Shown piece after piece: positions 3,097-63,031 of a DNA stretch of 64,000 nt; the first letter of the stretch is position 1; each line of letters starts with the position of its first letter. A model generated the notes under the pieces. It was not told where the DNA came from. It ran no database searches and was given only the letters and a program-made list of their open reading frames with translations. The position numbers and the translations under genes were made by a program. This DNA comes from an uncultured Planctomycetales bacterium (GTDB taxonomy: Bacteria; Omnitrophota; Gorgyraeia; Zapsychrales; JANLHA01), in assembly GCA_964489065.1 (NCBI GenBank), contig CAZAXH010000004.1, forward strand, positions 82,553-146,552, in the 5' to 3' direction.

Positions 3097-4119
3097 ATGT
3101 ATTTACATTTCAAGCATAAACCGCTCCTGACCGCCGGATTCTTCCTCCTGTGTTGTTGCGCCGGCTGCTTCCACCGGCCGGTCGACGAGAGCCTGCTGGA
3201 ACCTTTAAGCGAGCCCGAAAAAAAACTCGTGGAGACGTGCAAAAAAGACTACGGAGTCGACATCGTGCTCCGGCGCATGGCCAACACCCTGTGGGTCTAT
3301 GTGCCGACGGAAGACCAGTTCCTGCACCTGAAAGTCAGCGAAGACGGCCCCAAACCGGCCCAGCCGCCGGACGAGGCCCTAGCCATCCACTTTATTGACG
3401 CCGATTATCAAAACGCCGACGGCATGTTCACCGTCCGCTACGATATCGGGAAAACAAAAAAATCAACGGAAGATTATGGATATTCCCTGCAATACGTGGA
3501 ATCGTTTTCCAACCTCCGCCGCCAGATACCCACCGCGATCGGCCGGGCGTTCGCGGACGTGGAAGAAAACGAAAAAACCGGGCAAATGCAGGAACGCGTG
3601 GAAGGCGACGTGGATTACGGCGACTCCCAAAAACAATCCTCCCACAAAACCCTGGTGCAGTCCTATGTTAAAACCAACCCCGTGCCGGACTTTTTCGTGA
3701 TTGTGATCGCCGACATCAAAAACGGCCTGGAATCAAGGATGATATTTTATTTTAAAGATCTCCGCCGCGGCATGACCGACCCGTCGTTCACCGAAGAATA
3801 CACCCGCCGGATCATCGCGGAAAACATCACCGGCAACGCCGCGATCATCGGCGACCGTCTGGGGCGGCACGTCAAGTTCGACAACATCAGCTGGCCGAAA
3901 TTCCTAAGCAAACTGATCGCTTACCGCGTCCGTTATAAATTCGCCATGAGTTCAAACACGCCGTCTGAAGAGATCGACAAAGAAGTGCTGACGGTCACCG
4001 CCACGACCCTGGACATTTATCCATTCAGCCGGTATCAGGGGGTTTTAATGAAAAACCTCGACACGGGGCAGGATTTTTCCTACCGCAAAGAAGACCTCAA
4101 GCCCTACGTTTCCCATTAA
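3097..4119 (+). CDS. hypothetical secreted protein or lipoprotein
   Basis: Track ORF 2971..4119 overlaps the FtsH 3' end. The internal ATG at 3097 gives MYLHFKHKPLLTAGFFLLCCCAGC, a hydrophobic signal with a Cys cluster. No recognisable domain. Confidence 0.45.
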   Translation: MYLHFKHKPLLTAGFFLLCCCAGCFHRPVDESLLEPLSEPEKKLVETCKKDYGVDIVLRRMANTLWVYVPTEDQFLHLKVSEDGPKPAQPPDEALAIHFIDADYQNADGMFTVRYDIGKTKKSTEDYGYSLQYVESFSNLRRQIPTAIGRAFADVEENEKTGQMQERVEGDVDYGDSQKQSSHKTLVQSYVKTNPVPDFFVIVIADIKNGLESRMIFYFKDLRRGMTDPSFTEEYTRRIIAENITGNAAIIGDRLGRHVKFDNISWPKFLSKLIAYRVRYKFAMSSNTPSEEIDKEVLTVTATTLDIYPFSRYQGVLMKNLDTGQDFSYRKEDLKPYVSH

Positions 4120-4929: not shown

Positions 4930-5076
4930 ATCACCCCTGTTGATCTTTCTTGACCAGCCCCCTAAAAGCGCTAATCGTGATGTTTTTCCCTCATTTATAA
5001 CATTCTCTGACCGGAAGGGTTATTATACAATAAAACCGCCCAAAAGACAAATATCGCCTCTGTTTCACGCCAAGGG

Positions 5077-6342
5077 CTAAAACAAGGAAATTCCAAGTCC
5101 TTTTTTGTATTTGAACAAGCCCAATAGCCCTAGCAGAGTGAAGGTCCCTCCCACGCCCACCAAAATCCAGGTTCGGTCCACATATTCCGACAACAACGAG
5201 CTGGACAGCATCGCCACCAGAAACGCGAAATGGATGATAATCTCCAGCGAGCTGAACACCTTCCCCAGCATATTTTCGTCTGAAACAAGCAACGCAATCG
5301 TGTTGGCCGCGATGAAAACCGGGCCGATTACAAGCCCCAGAAAGAACGCCAGCGCCGCTGCCACAAGCAGTTGCGGATAAACCCTCACCATCAAGACAAA
5401 CAGGATCATCATCATGCCGCCCGCGAACAGGCAACAAAAAATCGTCTTGTGCCAGGGGATTTTCTTGCCCCAGCGGCCGTAAGCCAACGCGCCGACAAAA
5501 AGCCCCGCCCCGAGAAAGACGGCGAGGACGCCGAGGTCCCGGGTCACGCTTTTAAAACACTCCTGGATAAAAACAATAATGACCACGTACACCGCCCCGG
5601 CCGCGGCCATCAGGGTGAACAAAAGGTTGATCACAAACCGGATGCCGGGGTTGCGGGTGAGATATCGCACCCCTTCCTTAAGCTCCCGGACCACAGAACG
5701 TTCCAGGGCCAGGACTTCCTGCCCGGCCTGGATAAATTCTTTCCGGTCAAAATGCAAACGAAGATCATGAGGGATAGAAATCACAAGAAGACCCGACACA
5801 AAAAAAGTGACCGCGTTCACCACGAACCCGCCCCGTGCGCCGGTCCAGAAAACCAGGAACCCCCCAAACGCGCACCCGAAGACAAACGCCAGCATGCCGG
5901 TTGTGGTCATAAGGGAATTCGCCATGACCAGGTGTTCTTTTTCGACCAGTTCCGGAATGATCGACATCTTCGCCGGCACATAAAACCGGCTGAAGCAAAA
6001 AACCAAAAAGACAATAATATAAATAGGGATCAACGATTTCCAGACGATAAAAATCATCGGAATCAGCATCACCAGGACGCCCCGAGCGATGTCACAGAGG
6101 AACAGTGTTTTACGGTTTTCCCAGCGGTCTACATAAACGCCGGCGATGGGGCCCACGATAAAAACCGGGATGATCGTGAATGACAGGAGTTTGGCCAAAT
6201 CCATTGTTGAACCGGGGCTGCGCTCAGCAATAAGCCCTATCAAAGCCATCTGATTAATGCGGTCGCCGAACTGGGAAATCAGCTGCGCCAGCCATAACCG
6301 CATAAAAGGATAATTTTTCCGGTCAAAAATAAATTTTAACAT
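5077..6342 (-). CDS. MFS transporter
   Basis: About 12 TM helices and an MFS-type N-terminus (NYPFMRLWLAQLISQFGD). The track start at 6402 lies inside repeat copy A, so the start is moved to the internal Met (MLKF) at 6342. Confidence 0.75.
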   Translation of the reverse strand: MLKFIFDRKNYPFMRLWLAQLISQFGDRINQMALIGLIAERSPGSTMDLAKLLSFTIIPVFIVGPIAGVYVDRWENRKTLFLCDIARGVLVMLIPMIFIVWKSLIPIYIIVFLVFCFSRFYVPAKMSIIPELVEKEHLVMANSLMTTTGMLAFVFGCAFGGFLVFWTGARGGFVVNAVTFFVSGLLVISIPHDLRLHFDRKEFIQAGQEVLALERSVVRELKEGVRYLTRNPGIRFVINLLFTLMAAAGAVYVVIIVFIQECFKSVTRDLGVLAVFLGAGLFVGALAYGRWGKKIPWHKTIFCCLFAGGMMMILFVLMVRVYPQLLVAAALAFFLGLVIGPVFIAANTIALLVSDENMLGKVFSSLEIIIHFAFLVAMLSSSLLSEYVDRTWILVGVGGTFTLLGLLGLFKYKKGLGISLF

Positions 6343-6344
6343 GA

Positions 6345-6496
6345 TATGAAGCACTACGTTCCTATTAACAATTTGCCTCGAGGAATGGGCTGACTTCTTC
6401 ATATGCGTGCAGACATCCCCGAAGCAGAAGACCTTGTTATCCTCCCGCAGTCACCCCCGGGACTACCCGGGGTCTTCTGCGAAGGCGGATAAACAC
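6345..6496 (+). repeat. intergenic element family, copy A (5' box, hairpin GCAGAAGACC...GGTCTTCTGC, 3' tail GAAGGCGGATAAAC)
   Basis: The copy contains tatgaagcactacg, then aacaatttgcctcgaggaatgggctgacttcttcatatgcgtgcagacatccccgaagcagaagacc, a nested CCCCGGG/CCCGGGG hairpin, and ggtcttctgcgaaggcggataaac. It aligns to copies B-F. Confidence 0.7.
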
Positions 6497-10184: not shown

Positions 10185-10349
10185 ATTGTGGAACCCACAC
10201 CGATGGGCGTGGGTACTGCTAACAATTCGCTTCGCGGAATGATCTGACTTTTTAACACATGTGAACATCCCCAGAGCAGAAGACCGTGTAACCCATTCGC
10301 CTTCATTCCGCGGGCGTGCCTATGGTCTTCCGCAAAGACGGATAAAACC
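10185..10349 (+). repeat. intergenic element family, copy B
   Basis: The copy reads tgtggaacccacaccgatgggcgtggg, then aacaattcgcttcgcggaatgatctgactttttaacacatgtgaacatccccagagcagaagacc, a loop, and ggtcttccgcaaagacggataaaacc. Confidence 0.7.
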
Positions 10350-10374: not shown

Positions 10375-10662
10375 TCATCGCGGGACGTACGTGTTCTGCA
10401 GTTTCTTTTTATTATATGCGCTCGAGGCGCCCTGGACGCACCCAACGACCACCCCAAGCAATATCCACACAGCTGTTATCCCGATGCAAATTTTACCCCA
10501 GAGGATAAATTTTTTACCGATCGGGCTTAAAACCCCGAATTCATCCTTATTATTTTTTCCGGCAAAAATGAAAATGACACCGCATATCAACAGGACAACT
10601 TCCATAAAATCGGCTCCCGGATTTCTTCCCCCGCCCCCCTCATGGGTCGGACATCCTGCCAA
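10375..10662 (-). CDS. small hypothetical membrane protein (95 aa)
   Basis: Two predicted TM helices; no similarity recognised; weak support. Confidence 0.3.
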   Translation of the reverse strand: MAGCPTHEGGGGRNPGADFMEVVLLICGVIFIFAGKNNKDEFGVLSPIGKKFILWGKICIGITAVWILLGVVVGCVQGASSAYNKKKLQNTYVPR

Positions 10663-10691
10663 GACTGCAACGCCCGCTGTTAAAAAAAATA

Positions 10692-10765
10692 AGCCGACGA
10701 GAGGAGTTGAACCTCCGACCCACGGTTTACGAAACCGTTGCTCTACCGGGCTGAGCTACGTCGGC
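10692..10765 (-). tRNA. tRNA-Thr (anticodon CGU)
   Basis: The minus-strand sequence GCCGACGTAGCTCAGCCCGGTAGAGCAACGGTTTCGTAAACCGTGGGTCGGAGGTTCAACTCCTCTCGTCGGCT folds as a cloverleaf. Acceptor 7 bp, D stem GCTC/GAGC, anticodon stem ACGGT/ACCGT with loop TTCGTAA, T-loop TTCAACT. CCA is not encoded. Confidence 0.85.
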
Positions 10766-12666: not shown

Positions 12667-12849
12667 ACTGTTACTCCTTGTTTAGGCTACAGACAATTAT
12701 AAAATCTTAATTTCCCCTATCCTGCGGCCCCGGAATGGATCGGCCGGCTGTTCAAATAATAAACACAAATGTCATCCCGTTTTTTAAACTATCCGGGTTT
12801 CATTTCTTAGGCAACGGCATTGCATAAAAGCTCGGCATGCGTGAAATCA

Positions 12850-12960
12850 AAGGTATAACCCCAAAAGCAAACGCTGGACTTTCTTGCCCCGCGAATGCTC
12901 TTTGCCATTAAAAATTATACGTTAATTCCGGACGCCAATCAAAACAATTATACAAATTAC
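12850..12960 (+). repeat. degenerate remnant (copy H) of the intergenic element's promoter-proximal module
   Basis: ggtataaccccaaaagcaaacgctggac...gccccgcgaatgc...caatcaaaacaattatac aligns to the 62803-62860 part of copy E and to 22130-22180. The core hairpin is missing. Confidence 0.35.
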
Positions 12961-14599: not shown

Positions 14600-14807
14600 A
14601 TGGCCGTGGGTTTCCCGCGATAATAAAAAAATCTTGTCTGGGCCCTTGATTCATCACGTTACGCCTTCCCCCCGGGACATGGCAACAGATGACTCCACCG
14701 GGTTCGGCTGCGTCATTAGAAATGCAAACATCCCCGGGGCAAAAAACTTTGTGGACCCCTCGCATCCAGGGGCATGCCCGTGGCCTTCTGCTCATGGGGA
14801 TAAAACC
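14600..14807 (+). repeat. intergenic element family, copy F (divergent porin/MCP region)
   Basis: The copy reads ...ttagaaatgcaaacatccccggggcaaaaaac...ggggcatgcccgtggccttctgctcatggggataaaaccc. The 5' part is partly degenerate. Confidence 0.55.
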
Positions 14808-20071: not shown

Positions 20072-22102
20072 TTACGGTTTTAACGCCTCCGCCTGCGTGA
20101 TCAGGTCCTTAAAGCGCGGATCGTCCGGAGCCCGGTGTTGCCCCTCCTGCCAGGTTGCGATGGCGCGGGTGAAGTCATCCCTGTTGCCATAAAATTTTCC
20201 AAGCTCCACATAAGCGGCCGGATAATCCGGGTCCTTTTCCAGGGCTTTCTGGAAAAAAGACAACGCGGCCGGAGCCGCCCCAGCGGCCGCGAAGCGGCTG
20301 CCCAGAGCGGTCAACCTCCCCGCATCCGTACCCTCCGCCAGTACCCGCTGCGCCGCTTCCAGCGCCGACGGCTGCAATCCCGCCTCCAGATACAACTCCG
20401 TTAAATTATACAGGCTTTCTTCCTCATGCGGATCATATTTAAGAATATTCTGATATATTTCAATCGCGCGAAGATGCTCGCCCTGTTGCTGATACACCAA
20501 CGCCAGATTGCGGCGGGCTTCCAGCAACGCCGGATTCAGGGATTGGACTTTCAGAAAAACCTCCTGCGCCTGCTGCAGCTGCCCCGTCCGTAGATATAAC
20601 ACGCCCAGGTTGCTCCAGGTTTCGGCATATTCAGGATTCACGCCCAGGGCCTTTTCAAAATAATCCCGGGCCTCAAGGACGTTCCCCTCTTCCAGGAAAA
20701 TAAGGCCGAGATTATTCAATGTTTTATAACTCCGGGGATCCAGCCGGATAGCGTGATACAACATCTGTTTGGCGGCCCGGTAGTTCCCCACCCCCATATA
20801 CGCCGCGGCCAGATTATCATAAGGCCGCACTTTACGGGGAGATTTGCGGAGCACGTCCGTCCAGAGCGTCACCGGATTCTTCCACACGGCATTTCTCTGA
20901 TAAGTCAAAATGCCAAGCCCCGCCAGCCAAACCCCTATCACCACATAAAAAAACACACGGTTTTTAAACAGGGCCTGGAATCCTGACACGGCGAAAAGCG
21001 CAAAGCCGGTCAAAGCCAGATAAAGCCAATGCTCAAAAATCATATCCTTCCCCAGCAAAGCGCTTGACAGGAATTCCATCATCAGGCTGACAAGGAACCA
21101 AATAACGCAAAAGCTGAAAACCCGCCGCCGGTTAAACTGCCGGCACGCCCAGGCCGCCAGCCCCACGATCAGGATGATGGACAGAAGCGTCTGCCCTTCC
21201 CACACGCTTTGCGCCCGGGGGAAATCGTAATCCAAATTCTGCCGCACAGGCGCCAGGCATAACCAAAAATACGTTCTCAAAGCGTTCAAAGCCGTCAACC
21301 CGTTATTGACATGGAACCGGCCTGTGGCAAGCTGTTCCCGCAGGTCAACGATAGAAGATGACCGCTCCGCCAGCAGGCTAAAAGGGATAATAAACCAGGT
21401 CAAAAAAAACGGGGACAGCCGTTTCAGGCCCCCCAGGAGGCTCTCGTAGGAGCGGCGGATAAAAAACACGTGGATAATAAAAAGCATCAACGGCAGCGTA
21501 AAGGCGAGCTCTTTGGAAAACATCGCCAGAACCGCCGCGGCCAGGGAGGCGATATAATAATCCCGGTGGGCGGCACCGGCCCATTTGAGATAAAAAACAA
21601 TAGAAAGCAAATAAAAAAACACGGCTAAAAGCACGGCCCTTTGGGAAATATAATTGACCGCCTGGGTCTGCAAAGGATGTGCCAGGAAAACCAAAGCGGT
21701 CAACACGGCGGTGACCGCCGGCGCGCCGGCGTCAGCGGCGGAACGGCTTTCAAAAAACGGTGTCTGTAAAAGCTTCCTCACAAACACGAAGACCAAAAAC
21801 GCGTTCATAAAATGAAGCAGCAGATTGACCACATGATACCCGAAAACATCAAGTCCGCCGAACCGGTAGTTAAGCGCAAAGCTTAAACCCGTTACAAACC
21901 GGGTGTTGAAACTCGCCCATAGCGCCGGCCAATTCCAGAGAGAACGAACGGCGGGATTATGAATAATAAAGATATCGTCATCCAGGTGAAAAGTATTGTG
22001 GAGTGAGTTAGCATAAATCGTCCCGCCCAAAAGGACGATCAGGACAAAGGCGGCAACCCGGGCCCGGTCGGTAAATAACGACATTTTCTCTTGATTTTGC
22101 AT
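20072..22102 (-). CDS. PMT/TMTC-like membrane protein with C-terminal TPR repeats, paralog 3
   Basis: Polytopic N-terminal domain with HLDDDIFIIHNPAV loop motif; C-terminal ~250 aa TPR repeats. The start is trimmed to MQNQEK (GGAG 9 nt upstream) because 22125-22222 is a repeat remnant. Confidence 0.65.
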   Translation of the reverse strand: MQNQEKMSLFTDRARVAAFVLIVLLGGTIYANSLHNTFHLDDDIFIIHNPAVRSLWNWPALWASFNTRFVTGLSFALNYRFGGLDVFGYHVVNLLLHFMNAFLVFVFVRKLLQTPFFESRSAADAGAPAVTAVLTALVFLAHPLQTQAVNYISQRAVLLAVFFYLLSIVFYLKWAGAAHRDYYIASLAAAVLAMFSKELAFTLPLMLFIIHVFFIRRSYESLLGGLKRLSPFFLTWFIIPFSLLAERSSSIVDLREQLATGRFHVNNGLTALNALRTYFWLCLAPVRQNLDYDFPRAQSVWEGQTLLSIILIVGLAAWACRQFNRRRVFSFCVIWFLVSLMMEFLSSALLGKDMIFEHWLYLALTGFALFAVSGFQALFKNRVFFYVVIGVWLAGLGILTYQRNAVWKNPVTLWTDVLRKSPRKVRPYDNLAAAYMGVGNYRAAKQMLYHAIRLDPRSYKTLNNLGLIFLEEGNVLEARDYFEKALGVNPEYAETWSNLGVLYLRTGQLQQAQEVFLKVQSLNPALLEARRNLALVYQQQGEHLRAIEIYQNILKYDPHEEESLYNLTELYLEAGLQPSALEAAQRVLAEGTDAGRLTALGSRFAAAGAAPAALSFFQKALEKDPDYPAAYVELGKFYGNRDDFTRAIATWQEGQHRAPDDPRFKDLITQAEALKP

Positions 22103-22124
22103 CAGCGGGAATTCTCCGGTCAAC

Positions 22125-22262
22125 AAAAAAGCATGAACCCCAAAGCAAGCCCTAGACCCAATGAACCGCAGCAACCTGCGGGGTATTACACACACATCCT
22201 TCGACCCGTTCGCCTGGCTCACTAATATTTTTCTCAGAGCCGGCGGCCTCTTCCCCCGGTCT
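22125..22262 (+). repeat. degenerate copy (G) of the intergenic element (promoter-proximal module plus decayed core)
   Basis: tgaaccccaaagcaagccctagacccaatgaaccgcagcaacctgcgggg is followed by catccttcgacc...ggtcttgggtgtattctaatggataagacggc. The first part aligns to copy E at 62803-62860. Confidence 0.4.
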
Positions 22263-42867: not shown

Positions 42868-42914
42868 GCCAAACACCGGCCATTTGGCAGCGAAATTTTC
42901 TCAACCGCCGCTTC

Positions 42915-43052
42915 CTATAGGAGACCCCGCGCCCATAGGCATGGTTCCGAGGAACCATTCGCTTTGCGAGATGATCTATCTTTCTTAACATCCATGCAAA
43001 CATCCCCAACGCAGAAGACCACGGGCACGCCCGTGGTCTTCTGCGAAAACAG
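42915..43052 (+). repeat. intergenic element family, copy D (perfect 17-bp inverted repeat)
   Basis: ctataggagaccccgcgcccataggcatggttccgaggaacc is followed by attcgctttgcgagatgatctatctttcttaacatccatgcaaacatcccc. The hairpin is aacgcagaagaccacgggc-ac-gcccgtggtcttctgcg and the tail is aaaacagataagcagg. Confidence 0.7.
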
Positions 43053-43088
43053 ATAAGCAGGTCTTCCCGTCCTATCAGCTGCCCCGTG

Positions 43089-46699: not shown

Positions 46700-46876
46700 A
46701 TTTATTCGCTTTCTATGGAGCCCCCCGCTTACGGGCATGTCCCTATCAACAATTCGCTTCGCGGAATGACCTGACTTCTTAACATACACGCGAACATCCC
46801 CGAAGCAAGTCGTTGTTAATCTCTTGCCTTCATCCGCGGGCATGCCCGTGGTCTTCTGCGAAGGCGTATAAAATAC
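46700..46876 (+). repeat. intergenic element family, copy C
   Basis: tatggagccccccgcttacgggcatgtccc is followed by tatcaacaattcgcttcgcggaatgacctgacttcttaacatacacgcgaacatccccgaagc. Then come a degenerate arm, gcgggcatgcccgtggtcttctgcgaaggcgtataaaatacc. Confidence 0.7.
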
Positions 46877-48453
46877 CGGCACACAAAGCCCAGCAACAGA
46901 AGCAGATAATATAAAACGACCCCCCAAAACGGAACCCGGCTCAATTCAATATAGGCCCCGGGAATCCCGGCAAAGAAATCTACGCTCGCCACCATAAAAT
47001 TCAACAAAAGCACAAGGCAATTCGCGAAAGAAAACGCCAAGAACGGGCAAAGGCCCCCCACCAGCAAAAGTCCCAGACCCAAATAGATCATAATGGAAGC
47101 TACCGGAACGATCACGATATTTGCAATCATAACAACCGGTGTTACTAAACGAAAGTAATACGCGATCAACGGCCCCACAAAAACGTAAACCGCCCCAGAA
47201 AGGGCTATGGGCTGCAAAAGATATCTCATCCCAAACGTCTGGAAACAACCCCAACCTCCTGCCACGCCCGGTTTCGCGCCCCGGGCCGTTCCGGACGCGA
47301 TCCCAAACCCCGAAAACGGCTTACGCACGAAATTCAGGACCTCCGGATACAACACATAAATCGCAAGGACACTGATGAAAGACAGCTGGAACCCGACATC
47401 ATAAAGACTCCAAGGGTTGATCAATAAAATAATGAAGGCGGCCAAAGCCAGGCTGTTTAACGGGTCCGGCTCCCGTTCAACAAGCAATCCTATCAGAAAG
47501 ACGACCGCCATAATGGTGGCCCGGACCACCGACGGCTGCCCTCCGGTCAGGACGGCATAAAAAATCAACAGCGCAACGGTGAGCAGATACTGCCCCCGCC
47601 GCGGGATAGGGAACATTTTCAAAAAAAACAATATCCCATATGCGACAATGCCGATATTAAACCCGGATATCGCGATAATATGCGCCACTCCGGAAAATTG
47701 AAAATGGACATACACCTCTTTGGGAATCTCGCTGCGGTCCCCTAACAGAAACGCCTGCATAATGCCGGCCGCTTCTTCCGGCAAACTTCCCTTTAAAATT
47801 CTTCTTAATTGATGTTTGAGGCGAAAGACTCCCTCCAGAAGGACGTGGCCACGGCCTTGTTTCAATTTTTCCAGGCGTCCGGTTTTCTTAACGCTCAGGA
47901 TAAACAAAATGCCTTTGCGGGCGAGATACTCCCGGTAGGAAAAACGTCCACCTCTTGAAAAATTGAAAGGCCGGTGCAATGTCCCTTCCAGGATCAGATA
48001 ATCCCCGTACTGAACAGCTTCCTGCCGAAAAAGGTTCACCAGGACCCGGCCCCTGTTCCCTTCCCAGCCCTGCTTTGATTGAACCCGCTCAAGTTCCAAC
48101 ACAAACACTGTTTTTTCCCGGCCGAAAAAATCACGGTTCTCCGCGTCGGACACCACCACGCCTTCCGCCAGGACGCTGTCCTGGCGGGCCCAGGACGGCA
48201 TACGGCCCACATGGCCGGCGGGAAGTCTCTGACAATTCCTGAAATAAACCGTCCCCCAACACATCACGGCCGACAAAAGCAAAACAGTGGACAGCGTTGC
48301 CGCCCGGGCCCACAGGCTCATGAGCAACAAAAATACAGTAAGAACAAATAAAATCGCTCCCGAAACCTTAAAGCATTGGTCAAAGACAATGCCCAGAATA
48401 AAGCACAGGCAAACCCCTAACAAAGGACGGCGGGAAAAAACGGGGTCCATCAT
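46816..48453 (-). CDS. comEC: DNA internalization-related competence protein ComEC/Rec2 (no C-terminal beta-lactamase-fold domain)
   Basis: DUF4131-like N-terminus plus Competence domain (LLGDRSEIPKEVYVHFQFSGVAHIIAISGFNIGIV...). The last ~16 codons (..RLRRRPRACPRMKARD) are encoded by repeat copy C. Confidence 0.75.
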   Translation of the reverse strand: MMDPVFSRRPLLGVCLCFILGIVFDQCFKVSGAILFVLTVFLLLMSLWARAATLSTVLLLSAVMCWGTVYFRNCQRLPAGHVGRMPSWARQDSVLAEGVVVSDAENRDFFGREKTVFVLELERVQSKQGWEGNRGRVLVNLFRQEAVQYGDYLILEGTLHRPFNFSRGGRFSYREYLARKGILFILSVKKTGRLEKLKQGRGHVLLEGVFRLKHQLRRILKGSLPEEAAGIMQAFLLGDRSEIPKEVYVHFQFSGVAHIIAISGFNIGIVAYGILFFLKMFPIPRRGQYLLTVALLIFYAVLTGGQPSVVRATIMAVVFLIGLLVEREPDPLNSLALAAFIILLINPWSLYDVGFQLSFISVLAIYVLYPEVLNFVRKPFSGFGIASGTARGAKPGVAGGWGCFQTFGMRYLLQPIALSGAVYVFVGPLIAYYFRLVTPVVMIANIVIVPVASIMIYLGLGLLLVGGLCPFLAFSFANCLVLLLNFMVASVDFFAGIPGAYIELSRVPFWGVVLYYLLLLLGFVCRYFIRLRRRPRACPRMKARD

Positions 48454-62516: not shown

Positions 62517-62591
62517 TTCCTCTCAACAGTCCTAGATTATTCTATTTATACCCATCACAACCCTGTTCTTCATATAACAGCAGGCCCAGGA

Positions 62592-62795
62592 TCAGAAGCC
62601 GCAGAACTTCAAAAACACCAGCAAAAACGCCGCAATCAAAACACTTATAAGGATGGCCCGGGAAGACCATTTATATTTCATTTTGCCAAAAATACCGTCT
62701 CCGGCCCGATGCAGGCTTTCACCGCAAAAATGACACAAGAGGGCATCGTTATCATAAATCGGTTTCTTGCAATGAGGACAGATATACTCAGACAT
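62592..62795 (-). CDS. small zinc-ribbon membrane protein
   Basis: CPHC...CHFC zinc ribbon followed by one C-terminal TM helix; 67 aa. Confidence 0.4.
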   Translation of the reverse strand: MSEYICPHCKKPIYDNDALLCHFCGESLHRAGDGIFGKMKYKWSSRAILISVLIAAFLLVFLKFCGF

Positions 62796-62799
62796 AAAT

Positions 62800-63031
62800 C
62801 AAAGGTATAAACCCAAAAGCAAGCCCTGGACCCCATTAACCGCAGCAAACTGCGAGAAAGCAACAGCGGCGCCGGGTATGGAGCACCACGCCCTGCTCCC
62901 TGTTAATAATTCCCTTCGCAGGATGAACGCACCCCTTCACATACGTGCGAACATTCCCGAAGCAAAACACCTTATCAAACCCTTGCCTCCACCCACGGGC
63001 ATGCCCACACTCTTCTGCGAAAACGGATAAA
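62800..63031 (+). repeat. intergenic element family, copy E (full composite: promoter-proximal module plus core)
   Basis: ggtataaacccaaaagcaagccctggaccccattaaccgcagcaaactgcgagaaagcaacagcggcgcc, then gggtatggagcaccacgccctgctccc, then tgttaataattcccttcgcaggatgaacgcaccccttcacatacgtgcgaacattcccgaagc. Then a degenerate arm, cacgggcatgcccacactcttctgcgaaaacggataaaccc. Confidence 0.7.

Follow-up and report, generated by a model that had tools for sequence, protein, structure and literature searches.

The repeated intergenic element described here is very probably a non-autonomous, gene-less derivative of the IS200/IS605 group (a PATE, or mini-IS), with the minus strand of the window, that is, of the whole 64-kb stretch of DNA analysed, as its functional strand. 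This reading is based on the architecture of the two ends and the distances within them, the complementarity and covariation of guides and cleavage motifs, the lack of terminal inverted repeats and of a target-site duplication, the 5' motif, the unrelated flanks and the strand bias. The family is new but of a known kind, and it does not represent a new class of RNA element; IS200/IS605 ends and gene-less derivatives have been described previously (PMC3201880, PMC5934647, PMC3119063, PMC2993954). The first-pass annotation had proposed an undescribed structured element and a candidate 5'-UTR or sRNA. The sequence family does appear to be undescribed, but the ends fit IS200/IS605, and the proposal of a new kind of element is not upheld. 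The correspondence with a known IS terminal repeat, which that annotation had held to speak against its own proposal, is one of architecture and proposed mechanism and does not extend to sequence identity with a named IS.

Copies in the window

Six copies of about 150 nt each were recovered from the window by repeat search, MAFFT and nhmmer (Table 1), essentially where the first-pass annotation had located a repeated intergenic family. The alignment extends past the short hairpin, covering about 150 columns at a mean column identity of 68% (MAFFT). Copy E was matched at E=6.7e-38 by the subfamily HMM and at 6.3e-15 by the cross-phylum HMM; copies B, D and F, which were kept out of the seed of the latter, matched it at E=5.6e-12, 5.2e-9 and 1.1e-5, respectively. 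All six lie on the minus strand in a single orientation. The boxes and arms originally described are accurate, but they had been read on the plus strand, the opposite of the strand that carries the functional asymmetry. Where at least eight copies (about one per 8 kb) had been claimed, we count six, or about one per 10.7 kb, and the supposed degenerate remnants H (12850-12960), G (22125-22262) and 5010-5060 matched neither HMM. These remnants belong to module 2, a repeat of about 60 nt that is separate from the element. It had been described as a second module accompanying E, G, H and D; the repeat is real, but it is independent of the element and was not found beside copy D. The interval originally given for copy E, 62800-63031, fuses module 2 with the element proper. 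The further statements that the repeats are not a CRISPR array and that no transposase is present in the window both hold.

Table 1. Positions of the element copies and of module 2 in the window
Feature	Position	Strand	Description
Copy E	62878..63031	-	complete element plus T at position -1; order T, TTAT, CCGTTTTCGCAG, AAGA, HP1, interior, eroded HP2, ..GCTCCAT
Copy E C_L/TAM	63027..63030	-	TTAT, left cleavage/target motif
Copy E G_L	63011..63014	-	AAGA, the 4 nt 5' of the left hairpin
Copy E HP1	62994..63010	-	left subterminal hairpin (GTGTGGGCATGCCCGTG); stem covaries family-wide
Copy E right end	62878..62900	-	G_R-like GGGA (62897-62900), eroded HP2, C_R/TEM CCAT (62878-62881)
Copy C	46715..46872	-	TAM TTAT 46868-46871; G_L AAGA 46852-46855; HP1 46834-46851; overlaps ComEC ORF (46816-48453)
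Copy D	42921..43057 (approx.)	-	TAM TTAT 43053-43056; G_L AAGA 43037-43040; HP1 43019-43036; lengthened stem 43010-43045; 3' end placed within 42905-42921 (approximate)
Copy F	~14654..14806	-	TAM TTAT 14800-14803; G_L AAGG; HP1 14766-14783
Copy B	10187..10346	-	TAM TTAT 10342-10345; G_L AAGA 10326-10329
Copy A	6346..6493	-	TAM TTAT 6489-6492; G_L AAGA 6473-6476; HP1 6455-6472
Module 2	62797-62859		independent repeat
Module 2	22124-22186		independent repeat
Module 2	12845-12883		partial copy

The motif TTAT is present in all six window copies. By analogy with IS608, the TTAT of copy E is probably retained target DNA lying outside the element proper; a left target motif has precedent in IS608 and IS606 (PMC3201880, PMC2993954). 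Preservation of the remaining parts varies. Copy B has an intact HP2 (CCCACGCC..GGTGTGGG) with a short tail (TTCCAC), and copy D has a perfect HP1 whose stem is lengthened to 17 bp by the interior motif GGTCTTCTGCG. Copy A has lost HP2 and ends in ..GTGCTTCAT, 4 nt before the start codon ATG (6342) of a gene for an MFS transporter. The right end is no longer recognisable in copy F, the most diverged of the six, which has an orthologue in locus L058, and the right hairpin of copy E is degenerate both in the window and in its orthologue in L079. The final 18 codons of the ComEC ORF, together with its stop codon, come from the first 57 nt of copy C. The window copies are about 68% alike, are shared with a sister species and, in most cases, have an eroded hairpin at the right end; probably they are fossils that no longer move. 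They can be regarded as ordinary decayed insertions, now within intergenic leaders and one ComEC ORF tail, with visible effects on these alone.

End architecture and guide pairing

On the minus strand the element consists of TTAT (C_L/TAM), a 12-nt linker, the left guide AAGA (G_L), the hairpin HP1, an interior that varies, the 4-nt guide of the right end (G_R), the hairpin HP2, 4-5 nt and finally C/TCAT (C_R/TEM), or in short TTAT|CCGCCTTCGCAGAAGA-hairpin ... hairpin-N4-5-C/TCAT. HP1 and HP2 are hairpins of 7-8 bp on the same strand, near-identical in sequence within each subfamily and closed by loops of the GNRA, UNCG or CUUG types. The ends are asymmetric, with the left cleavage site farther from its hairpin than the right: the foot of HP1 is 16 nt from the TTAT on its 5' side, and the tail 3' of the HP2 foot measures 8 nt in 43 of 55 copies and 9 nt in another 8. 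The boundaries are sharp, with a T at position -1 in 110 of 125 copies (88%) and otherwise random flanks, and the termini are the most conserved parts of the family. Copies across the family range from 46 to 292 nt, and the minimal forms (46-50 nt) contain a single hairpin.

Terminal inverted repeats are absent, the consensus termini matching at just 5/15 and 6/16 positions. A target-site duplication was likewise not detected, since flank k-mer identity (k=2-8) in 93 copies was at the level of shuffled controls whether TTAT was counted as flank or as element. A TIR-type MITE was rejected on these two grounds. The element contains no conserved ORF: a reverse-strand protein (ATGGAGCC..., ATGAAGCC...) was discarded as the reading frame stops after 5 codons in one subfamily, the Desulfobacteria type, and a spurious cluster obtained by ORF clustering proved to be the element itself. 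Group I and group II intron ends, attC sites, cores of the hammerhead and other ribozymes, and sigma-54 or sigma-70 promoters were dropped since their defining motifs are absent, and a 10-nt match of the left end to 16S rRNA (GCGAAGGCGG) was attributed to chance (estimated p~0.05).

In IS608 the guide rule includes the contacts A+16:T-3 and A+17:T-4 (PMC5934647). Applied to copy E, the IS608 rule (C1:G2, C2:G1, C4:G4) pairs AAGA with TTAT, and this left-end combination is found in 111 copies. At the right end, Watson-Crick pairing by the same rule is seen at C1:G2 in 44/55 copies and in 47/55 at each of C2:G1 and C4:G4. In a formal count 92% of cells were paired, against 36-57% when the partners were slid; the G2:C1 pair was GC in 29 cases and AU in 11, and every measure exceeded 500/500 shuffles. 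The right-end subfamilies covary, GGGA or GGTA occurring with CCAT and GATA or GAAA with TCAT, to an extent reached by 0/10,000 shuffles. The first nucleotide 3' of HP2 also tracks the G2:C1 pair (C/G/G 38, T/A/A 12; Fisher p=4e-7).

The left-end subfamilies covary in the same manner, TTAT/AAGA versus TCAT/GAGA. An independent metagenome scan yielded 19 real copies with the mutated left guide GAGA, located at unrelated sites; 17 of them had TCAT or CCAT, a count curated by eye; an automated subset separately gave a Fisher p=8e-15. Between the subfamilies just 3 of about 33 conserved left-end positions differ, namely the base-triple nucleotide and the G1:C2 pair, with the second nucleotide 3' of HP1 changing from T to G as G1:C2 changes from A:T to G:C. 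The switch of target from TTAT to TCAT, with matching changes in guide and base triple, represents a natural experiment paralleling the crystal and engineering work on IS608. Compensatory pair changes were also found in the stems of both HP1 and HP2, the kind of change by which the first-pass annotation had proposed to judge them.

The covariation derives mainly from two clades per end, so that the number of evolutionary events that are independent is small. Across phyla, conservation of the 12-nt linker and of parts of the interior is higher than the biochemistry of IS608 needs. An interior motif is complementary to the TAM and the start of the left end and switches along with the TAM, and GGATGAA, 3' of HP1, may pair with the 3' terminus in a candidate helix whose support is patchy.

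Distribution, mobilisation and alternative readings

Among the matches listed, the family occupies more than 115 loci, spread over more than 10 phyla. Its many copies are in hosts that include Desulfobacterota, Omnitrophota, CPR, Planctomycetota, Binatia and Kiritimatiellae, among others, and an identical 22-nt left end recurs across these groups. Near-identical copies with unrelated flanks occur within single MAGs. The copy number and the flanks suggest that the family is mobile, although among the loci compared neither empty sites nor excision polymorphism were observed, and the orthologous sets (window/L058/L079, L035/L071 and L036/L118) all carry the copy. Neither a Y1 transposase, nor TnpB, nor a long gene-carrying version with these ends was found in about 1.1 Mb of flanks at about 150 loci, using all-vs-all ORF clustering, Pfam annotation of 150 neighbours and tblastn with approximate Y1 probes. 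Searches of IMG/VR for a parent of the element (0 hits) and of PLSDB for an autonomous parent were negative, and no LE...RE pairs 0.4-3.5 kb apart were found.

We infer the transposase itself, current activity, the role of TTAT as flanking target and, since no transposase was found nearby, mobilisation in trans. A Y1 HUH transposase (TnpA) encoded elsewhere would bind both hairpins when the strand is single-stranded at the replication fork, and each guide would base-pair with its own cleavage motif. The top strand would then leave as a circle and re-insert 3' of another TTAT, with no duplication of the target. As regards strand, the forward strand is G-rich in 74/108 loci (p=1.5e-4), judged from the GC skew of 8-kb MAG fragments and confounded with gene orientation, and the element is on the G-rich strand in 6/6 window copies. 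A replication-strand bias would be the better explanation of why all copies in the window share one strand.

The spread across phyla with no identified transposase raises the question of the mobiliser. A left end that is identical over 22 nt in more than 10 phyla, conserved blocks in the interior, the lack of a linked transposase and the TAM-complementary motif together suggest an extension of the PATE reading that we consider unlikely: that the interior is a functional module, either an omega-RNA-like scaffold for a TnpB-type nuclease acting in trans or a DNA fold that extends or gates recognition of the target and left end, and that the mobiliser is a widely conserved, possibly domesticated HUH enzyme and not a conventional parent IS. 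The narrower proposal, of a PATE that is both mobile DNA and an RNA gene, its interior being an omega-RNA scaffold used in trans by a TnpB/IscB-type nuclease, is distinctly unlikely. There is precedent, since PATEs often encode omega-RNAs that are acted on in trans (PMC10055086). Different subfamilies and phyla share the conserved interior blocks GGATGAATGCG, TGCTTCGGCGGATTTCGCC and GAAGAAAT..GGATACC, which stop at the right boundary, the place where such a scaffold would end, and the loops are RNA-type tetraloops. However, neither the Rfam omega-RNA and HEARO families nor the IS605-orfB family gave a match, TnpB and paired ends were not found nearby as noted above, and the interior is dispensable, as shown by the 46-nt forms and by forms with large insertions or deletions. 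Interior pairings beyond the hairpins are weakly or alternatively supported.

RAYTs are related to the TnpA of IS200/IS605. A REP/REPIN-like element that owes its upkeep to a domesticated HUH enzyme of RAYT type, present in single copy, and that has a host role such as stabilisation of mRNA 3' ends or as a terminator accessory, would account for the high copy number with no linked transposase, the frequent single-hairpin forms and the longevity of orthologous copies. It would also suit the location of the copies, which favour gene 3' ends and terminators, many of them directly following terminator-like hairpins with T-runs, and many lying between convergent genes. We nevertheless judge it very unlikely, since the conserved 5' GTAG of REPs is absent, the hairpins are two direct copies and not an inverted pair, and each end has its own guide and cleavage set at IS608-like asymmetric distances. 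Furthermore, a REP family is as a rule confined to one species, whereas the left end seen here is the same in different phyla, and no RAYT-like gene flanked by copies was seen in what is a thin sampling. The claim that the element is not of the BOX, RUP or Correia type is borne out, the absence of terminal inverted repeats and target duplication excluding the TIR-type families; for REP, the missing GTAG speaks against a match.

The suggestion of the first-pass annotation was a structured RNA acting in cis (a regulator of the 5'-leader or riboswitch type) or an independent sRNA, with transcription on the minus strand ahead of the downstream genes. In its favour, the six window copies are just upstream of minus-strand genes, mostly encoding membrane proteins, and point in the same direction; the loops are of types common to RNA (GNRA, UNCG or CUUG), the stems show compensatory changes, and orthologous copies are kept in a sister species. 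Genes in the window are, however, nearly all on the minus strand in any case, and the co-orientation seen there weakens family-wide, where orientation relative to the flanking genes is near random (++28, --21, +-13, -+5). The 150 neighbouring proteins comprise 169 Pfam families, none enriched, of unrelated housekeeping genes, and the preference for gene 3' ends and terminators also speaks against a leader. It is the termini and not an RNA core that are most conserved, and retention of the same sequence in HP1 and HP2 suggests recognition by a protein over an RNA fold. Copy B is about 93% identical to its L058 orthologue, the adjacent intergenic DNA being equally conserved. The statement that the element matches no Rfam family also stands: at gathering thresholds the window, like 15 loci searched with it, gave only tRNAs and noise in Rfam 15; for two clean copies nothing credible was found at E<=10, the best being Acido-Lenti-1 at 20 bits (cutoff 37) on the wrong strand. 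The riboswitch or leader idea was rejected on the unrelated neighbours and weak orientation, and a cis-acting RNA in general appears highly improbable.

For annotation this means that the label of an IS200/IS605-type PATE can be given to a very common intergenic repeat of uncultured lineages, among them Omnitrophota, Desulfobacterota, CPR and Planctomycetota. The element breaks up MAG assemblies and may be taken for a regulatory RNA. No published description quoting its sequence was found in the literature.

Comparison with known systems

TIR-type MITEs (Correia/NEMIS, ERIC, BOX, RUP) are, like the element, small, non-coding, multi-copy, intergenic, foldable and sometimes fused to ORF ends, but they carry terminal inverted repeats and usually a target duplication, and the element has neither. 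REP/REPIN sequences with their RAYTs share with it the short, high-copy intergenic hairpins, often near gene 3' ends, and would share processing by a Y1 HUH enzyme encoded elsewhere. REPs begin with a 5' GTAG, occur singly or as inverted pairs, are lineage-specific and lack separate left and right guide and cleavage sets, whereas the element has TTAT and a 16-nt arm on its 5' side and hairpins that are direct repeats with different flanks.

TTAT has been documented as the target of IS606, and mini-IS605 and mini-IS606 are present in H. pylori in multiple copies (PMC2993954). As in these, the left end of the element adjoins 5'-TTAT, and the element and the minis alike are multi-copy, gene-less two-end derivatives, with copies that differ by 10-20%. 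The H. pylori minis keep 100-150 bp per end and have full-length parents in the same species, whereas the element is about 110-230 nt (minimal forms 46-50) with no known parent.

The PATEs of Haloquadratum walsbyi and the PATE-like elements of Geobacillus stearothermophilus (PMC3119063, PMC10055086) resemble the element in being too short to encode a protein, in lacking terminal inverted repeats and target-site duplications, and in having near-identical, near-terminal palindromes with the 5' end farther from its palindrome than the 3' end. They also share a conserved 4-5-nt 5' targeting oligonucleotide, a presumed mobilisation in trans, terminal-only forms of about 50 nt produced by deletion between the palindromes, and other mini-repeats nested in the palindromes. 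The single-hairpin forms of 46-50 nt match the 52-bp terminal-only PATEs, which arise when the core is lost through repeat-mediated deletion (PMC3119063). The sequences are unrelated, and the element differs in being one family with an identical left end in more than 10 bacterial phyla, CPR included, among the matches listed. Haloquadratum PATEs are tied to ISs of Natronomonas and Haloquadratum, whereas a cognate IS605-type parent was not found here.

In IS608 of Helicobacter pylori the corresponding distances are 19 nt and 10 nt; C_L does not belong to the IS, and C_R lies within it (PMC3201880). The element has 16 and 8-9 nt instead, carries neither tnpA nor tnpB, and uses TTAT/AAGA on the left and C/TCAT with GGGA or GATA on the right, not TTAC/AAAG and TCAA/GAAT. 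At the third position of its guides it has G, T or A and not the A that inserts into TnpA. The organisation is otherwise that of IS608: hairpins in subterminal position on the top strand, a C_L that is probably external to the element and a C_R within it, 4-nt guides pairing C1:G2, C2:G1 and C4:G4, and bases 3' of the hairpin foot at the base-triple positions. Insertion of IS608 is biased to the lagging-strand template, and the G-rich-strand bias of the element, with GC skew as proxy, is in the direction that this predicts.

Copies of the repeat in the window and in other genomes

The first-pass annotation had described an intergenic repeat present in at least eight copies, and this was largely right, with corrections to the copy number, to one joined interval and to the position of a second module. 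A repeat search recovered the family where it had been placed, as a group of six copies (D1) together with groups D2, D5 and D6, and the six intergenic segments aligned over ~150 columns with a mean column identity of 68% (MAFFT). When the whole window was searched with profiles and no filtering, exactly six copies were found, all in the same orientation; the remnants proposed at G, H and 5010-5060 gave no match. A cross-phylum HMM whose seed excluded copies B, D and F matched these three with E=5.6e-12, 5.2e-9 and 1.1e-5, respectively.

Positions of the element and of module 2 in the window
Feature	Position	Strand	Basis or description
Copy A	6346-6493	minus	profile search
Copy B	10187-10346	minus	profile search
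Copy F	~14654-14806	minus	profile search
Copy D	~42921-43057	minus	profile search
Copy C	46715-46872	minus	profile search
Copy E	62878-63031	minus	profile search
Module 2	62797-62859	minus	separate ~60-nt repeat
Module 2	22124-22186	minus	separate ~60-nt repeat
Module 2	12845-12883	minus	separate ~60-nt repeat, partial

The interval 62800-63031, taken earlier for one element, joins two unrelated repeats, module 2 and copy E. Module 2, which is what G and H have in common with the region beside copy E, consists of the hairpin CGCAGnTTGCTGCG followed by GGGTCyAGGGCTTGCTTTkGGGTT; it had been assigned to E, G, H and D and was found at the first three (partially at H), and not at D. It lies directly upstream of the start codons of a small Zn-ribbon ORF (62590-62796) and a TPR protein (near 22100), and its sole further match is the orthologue in L079, a locus of a related genome. 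A 126-nt stretch of the window (12737-12862, including the partial module 2) is absent from the 90%-identical relative L058 (at ~5790) and is an indel polymorphism. Compared with window positions 10619-10721, L058 has ~190 extra nt (~3630-3820) beside a tRNA gene (window 10692-10765), which looks like a partial tandem duplication including a truncated tRNA copy.

When one genome per species was scanned for the degenerate 5' end (minus-strand sense), at least 117 loci matched, of which ~6 are estimated to be chance matches. Hosts among the matches listed, named as titled in the database records, include Desulfobacteria/Desulfobacterales, Syntrophobacteraceae, Omnitrophota, CPR (Kerfeld-, Sacchari- and Parcubacteria), Planctomycetota including Scalindua, Binatia, Kiritimatiellae, Firestonebacteria, FCPU426, Anaerolineae and others. 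Rfam has no family for the element, even at E<=10; IMG/VR and PLSDB gave no match, and no publication with its sequence was found. Three loci of one Omnitrophota MAG (L058, L079 and L102) match the window at 90-95% identity and contain orthologues of copies B, F and E, so that the window derives from a relative of this organism. Copies within single MAGs, such as JAQYVR01, are near-identical with unrelated flanks. The copies fall into length classes of 46-50 nt (one hairpin), ~110-166 nt, and 190-290 nt with nested insertions. Many contigs stop inside the element, as is typical when a high-copy repeat is assembled (L003, L018, L020, L022, L023, L046, L077, L082 and L101). Short-read assemblies of these lineages are evidently broken by it, so that its copy numbers are underestimated.

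Anatomy of the ends and guide pairing

On the forward strand of the element (the minus strand of the window) the left part reads T / TTAT / CCGCCTTCGCAG / AAGA / HP1 (CCACGGGC..GCCCGTGG) / GGATGAATGCG / variable interior, and the right part reads variable interior / 4-nt guide / HP2 / 4-5 nt / CCAT or TCAT, where HP1 and HP2 are subterminal hairpins of almost the same sequence. The boundaries are sharp, with T at position -1 in 110 of 125 copies and flanks that are random apart from this. No target duplication was found at the flanks, and the two ends are not inverted repeats of each other.

In IS608, a 4-nt guide just 5' of each hairpin foot reads the cleavage site: on the left, AAAG reads TTAC, outside the IS and 19 nt 5' of the foot; on the right, GAAT reads TCAA, within the IS and 10 nt 3' of the foot (PMC3201880, PMC5934647). 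The corresponding left site of the element is TTAT, 16 nt 5' of the HP1 foot, with the guide AAGA; the right site, ending 8 nt (43/55) or 9 nt (8/55) past the HP2 foot, is CCAT with the guides GGGA/GGTA or TCAT with GATA/GAAA. The IS608 pairs A+16:T-3 and A+17:T-4 (PMC5934647) translate into C1:G2 and C2:G1 between cleavage motif (C) and guide (G), and C4:G4 is likewise consistent with both IS608 ends. At the left end all three pairs form in 111 copies with TTAT/AAGA; at the right end they are Watson-Crick in 44, 47 and 47 of 55 copies, respectively. The right-end subfamilies covary, with none of 10,000 shuffles reaching the observed count; at each end, two clades underlie the guide-cleavage covariation. 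In a formal count, 92% of cells were paired versus 36-57% with slid partners; G2:C1 was GC in 29 and AU in 11, and every measure exceeded 500/500 shuffles. The first base 3' of HP2 tracks G2:C1 (C/G/G in 38 copies, T/A/A in 12; Fisher p=4e-7). Both ends of the element follow the IS608 guide rule.

A family-wide interior motif, GGCGGATAA, is complementary to the left cleavage motif (TAM) and to the 5 nt that open the left end (e.g. L108 ~4930-4950, and the metagenome loci L120-L151). It becomes GGCGGATGA in the TCAT subfamily, switching together with the TAM, and is not predicted by the published IS608 mechanism. The interior GGTCTTCTGC of the window subfamily would sequester the left guide.

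Some copies carry nested repeats, either a ~33-nt hairpin CCTGCGTGCCGAAAGCAGCTACGTCGTGCAGGC in the HP1 loop (L017, L024, L051 and L093) or interior blocks GCCCGTCCTCCGCAGTAGCC...GGAGGATGG (L047, L054, L057, L067, L073, L099 and L100). In nine copies the terminal ..TCAT supplies the TGA stop of a convergent ORF ending 4 nt inside the element; either insertions often occur at gene ends or ORFs run into the element until a stop.

Gene context, orientation and mobility

Window genes lie nearly all on the minus strand, the GC skew of the plus strand is negative throughout, and each copy sits between minus-strand genes, directly upstream of the next one (an MFS transporter, a TPR membrane protein, an unknown 453-aa protein, an SNF symporter, a CitMHS transporter and the small Zn-ribbon ORF). 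The end of copy A and the ATG of the MFS gene are 4 nt apart (6342-6346), which places the ribosome-binding region of this gene inside the element. At 46816-46872, copy C contributes the final 18 codons (..YFIRLRRRPRACPRMKARD*) of the ComEC ORF together with its stop codon. An Rfam search of the window returned two tRNAs and nothing else.

A regulon-specific leader or riboswitch and a cis-linked transposase are both excluded, since the 150 immediate neighbour proteins are diverse (169 Pfam families, each with at most three members), include no transposase, reverse transcriptase or nuclease by Pfam, and the element is oriented nearly at random with respect to its flanking genes (++28, --21, +-13, -+5). 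Copies lie near gene ends, often right after terminator-like hairpins. Across loci, the G-rich strand coincides with the forward strand of the element at 74/108 (p=1.5e-4) and at 6/6 in the window, GC skew serving as a proxy; insertion of IS200/IS605 elements places their active strand on the lagging-strand template (PMC5027513). The shared orientation of the window copies is best read as a strand bias of insertion, not as a role upstream of genes.

These copies are best read as old insertions and are probably immobile. TTAT is kept in 6/6 and AAGA in 5/6, the right-end hairpin is eroded or lost in A, C, D, E and F, and copy B has a shortened tail. Their mutual likeness is ~68%. The sister species also has B, E and F, the three of the six copies that its orthologous sequence covers, and copy B is conserved about as well as the adjoining intergenic DNA.

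In ~1.1 Mb of flanks, searched with approximate Y1 probe sequences, there was no Y1 transposase or TnpB and no gene-carrying relative that has these ends, which agrees with the earlier remark that no transposase accompanies the repeat. The insertion was shared in all orthologous pairs compared, leaving no empty site. Since neither a gene-carrying relative nor an empty site was found, it is from the architecture that we infer mobilisation in trans by TnpA.

Retargeting and relation to known elements

An independent metagenome scan with ATCCGCCTTCGCAGBAGACC, which retrieves only copies mutated at left-guide position 1, showed that real elements with GAGA, curated by eye, are flanked by TCAT (16), CCAT (1) or TTAT (2), with interiors and flanks of many kinds. 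In an automated subset of the mutated-guide copies, the association gave Fisher p=8e-15. Where the guide is CAGA or TAGA, TTAT is mostly retained, as expected of dead, point-mutated copies. Provided that the TAM belongs to the flanking DNA, as it does in IS608, every insertion samples a new target, and the 17 TCAT/CCAT sites would be independent events. Of ~33 conserved left-end positions, only three distinguish the two subfamilies: position 2 of C_L is changed T->C, position 1 of G_L is changed A->G, and the second base on the 3' side of the HP1 foot is changed T->G. The last corresponds to T+43 of IS608, which forms a base triple with A+16:T-3 (PMC5934647). The natural retargeting from TTAT to TCAT mirrors the structural rules of IS608.

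The element had been put forward as a new kind of structured element, a reading that gains no support here. Its layout matches IS608, the model case of single-strand transposition by IS200/IS605 elements, and it very probably represents a new PATE family (gene-less mini-transposons) of the IS200/IS605 type, a kind already known. Its left motif equals the 5'-TTAT target of IS606, and mini-IS605/606 are multi-copy in H. pylori (PMC2993954). It agrees on every point with the definition of Haloquadratum PATEs: no ITRs, similar near-terminal palindromes, no target duplication, a length too small for a transposase gene and a longer 5' arm (PMC3119063). The 52-bp terminal-only PATEs formed there by repeat-mediated core deletion have their counterpart in the 46-50-nt forms, whose sole guide is AAGA and in which C2:G1 fails in 13/13; these are probably immobile solo remnants, although terminal-only PATEs may move (PMC3119063). 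Small repeats also insert into PATE palindromes, as the ~33-nt insert does in HP1, and the nested mini-repeats are reminiscent of the SMR-A repeats that target these palindromes (PMC3119063). The present family is notable for its cross-phylum spread together with its natural TTAT-to-TCAT retargeting.
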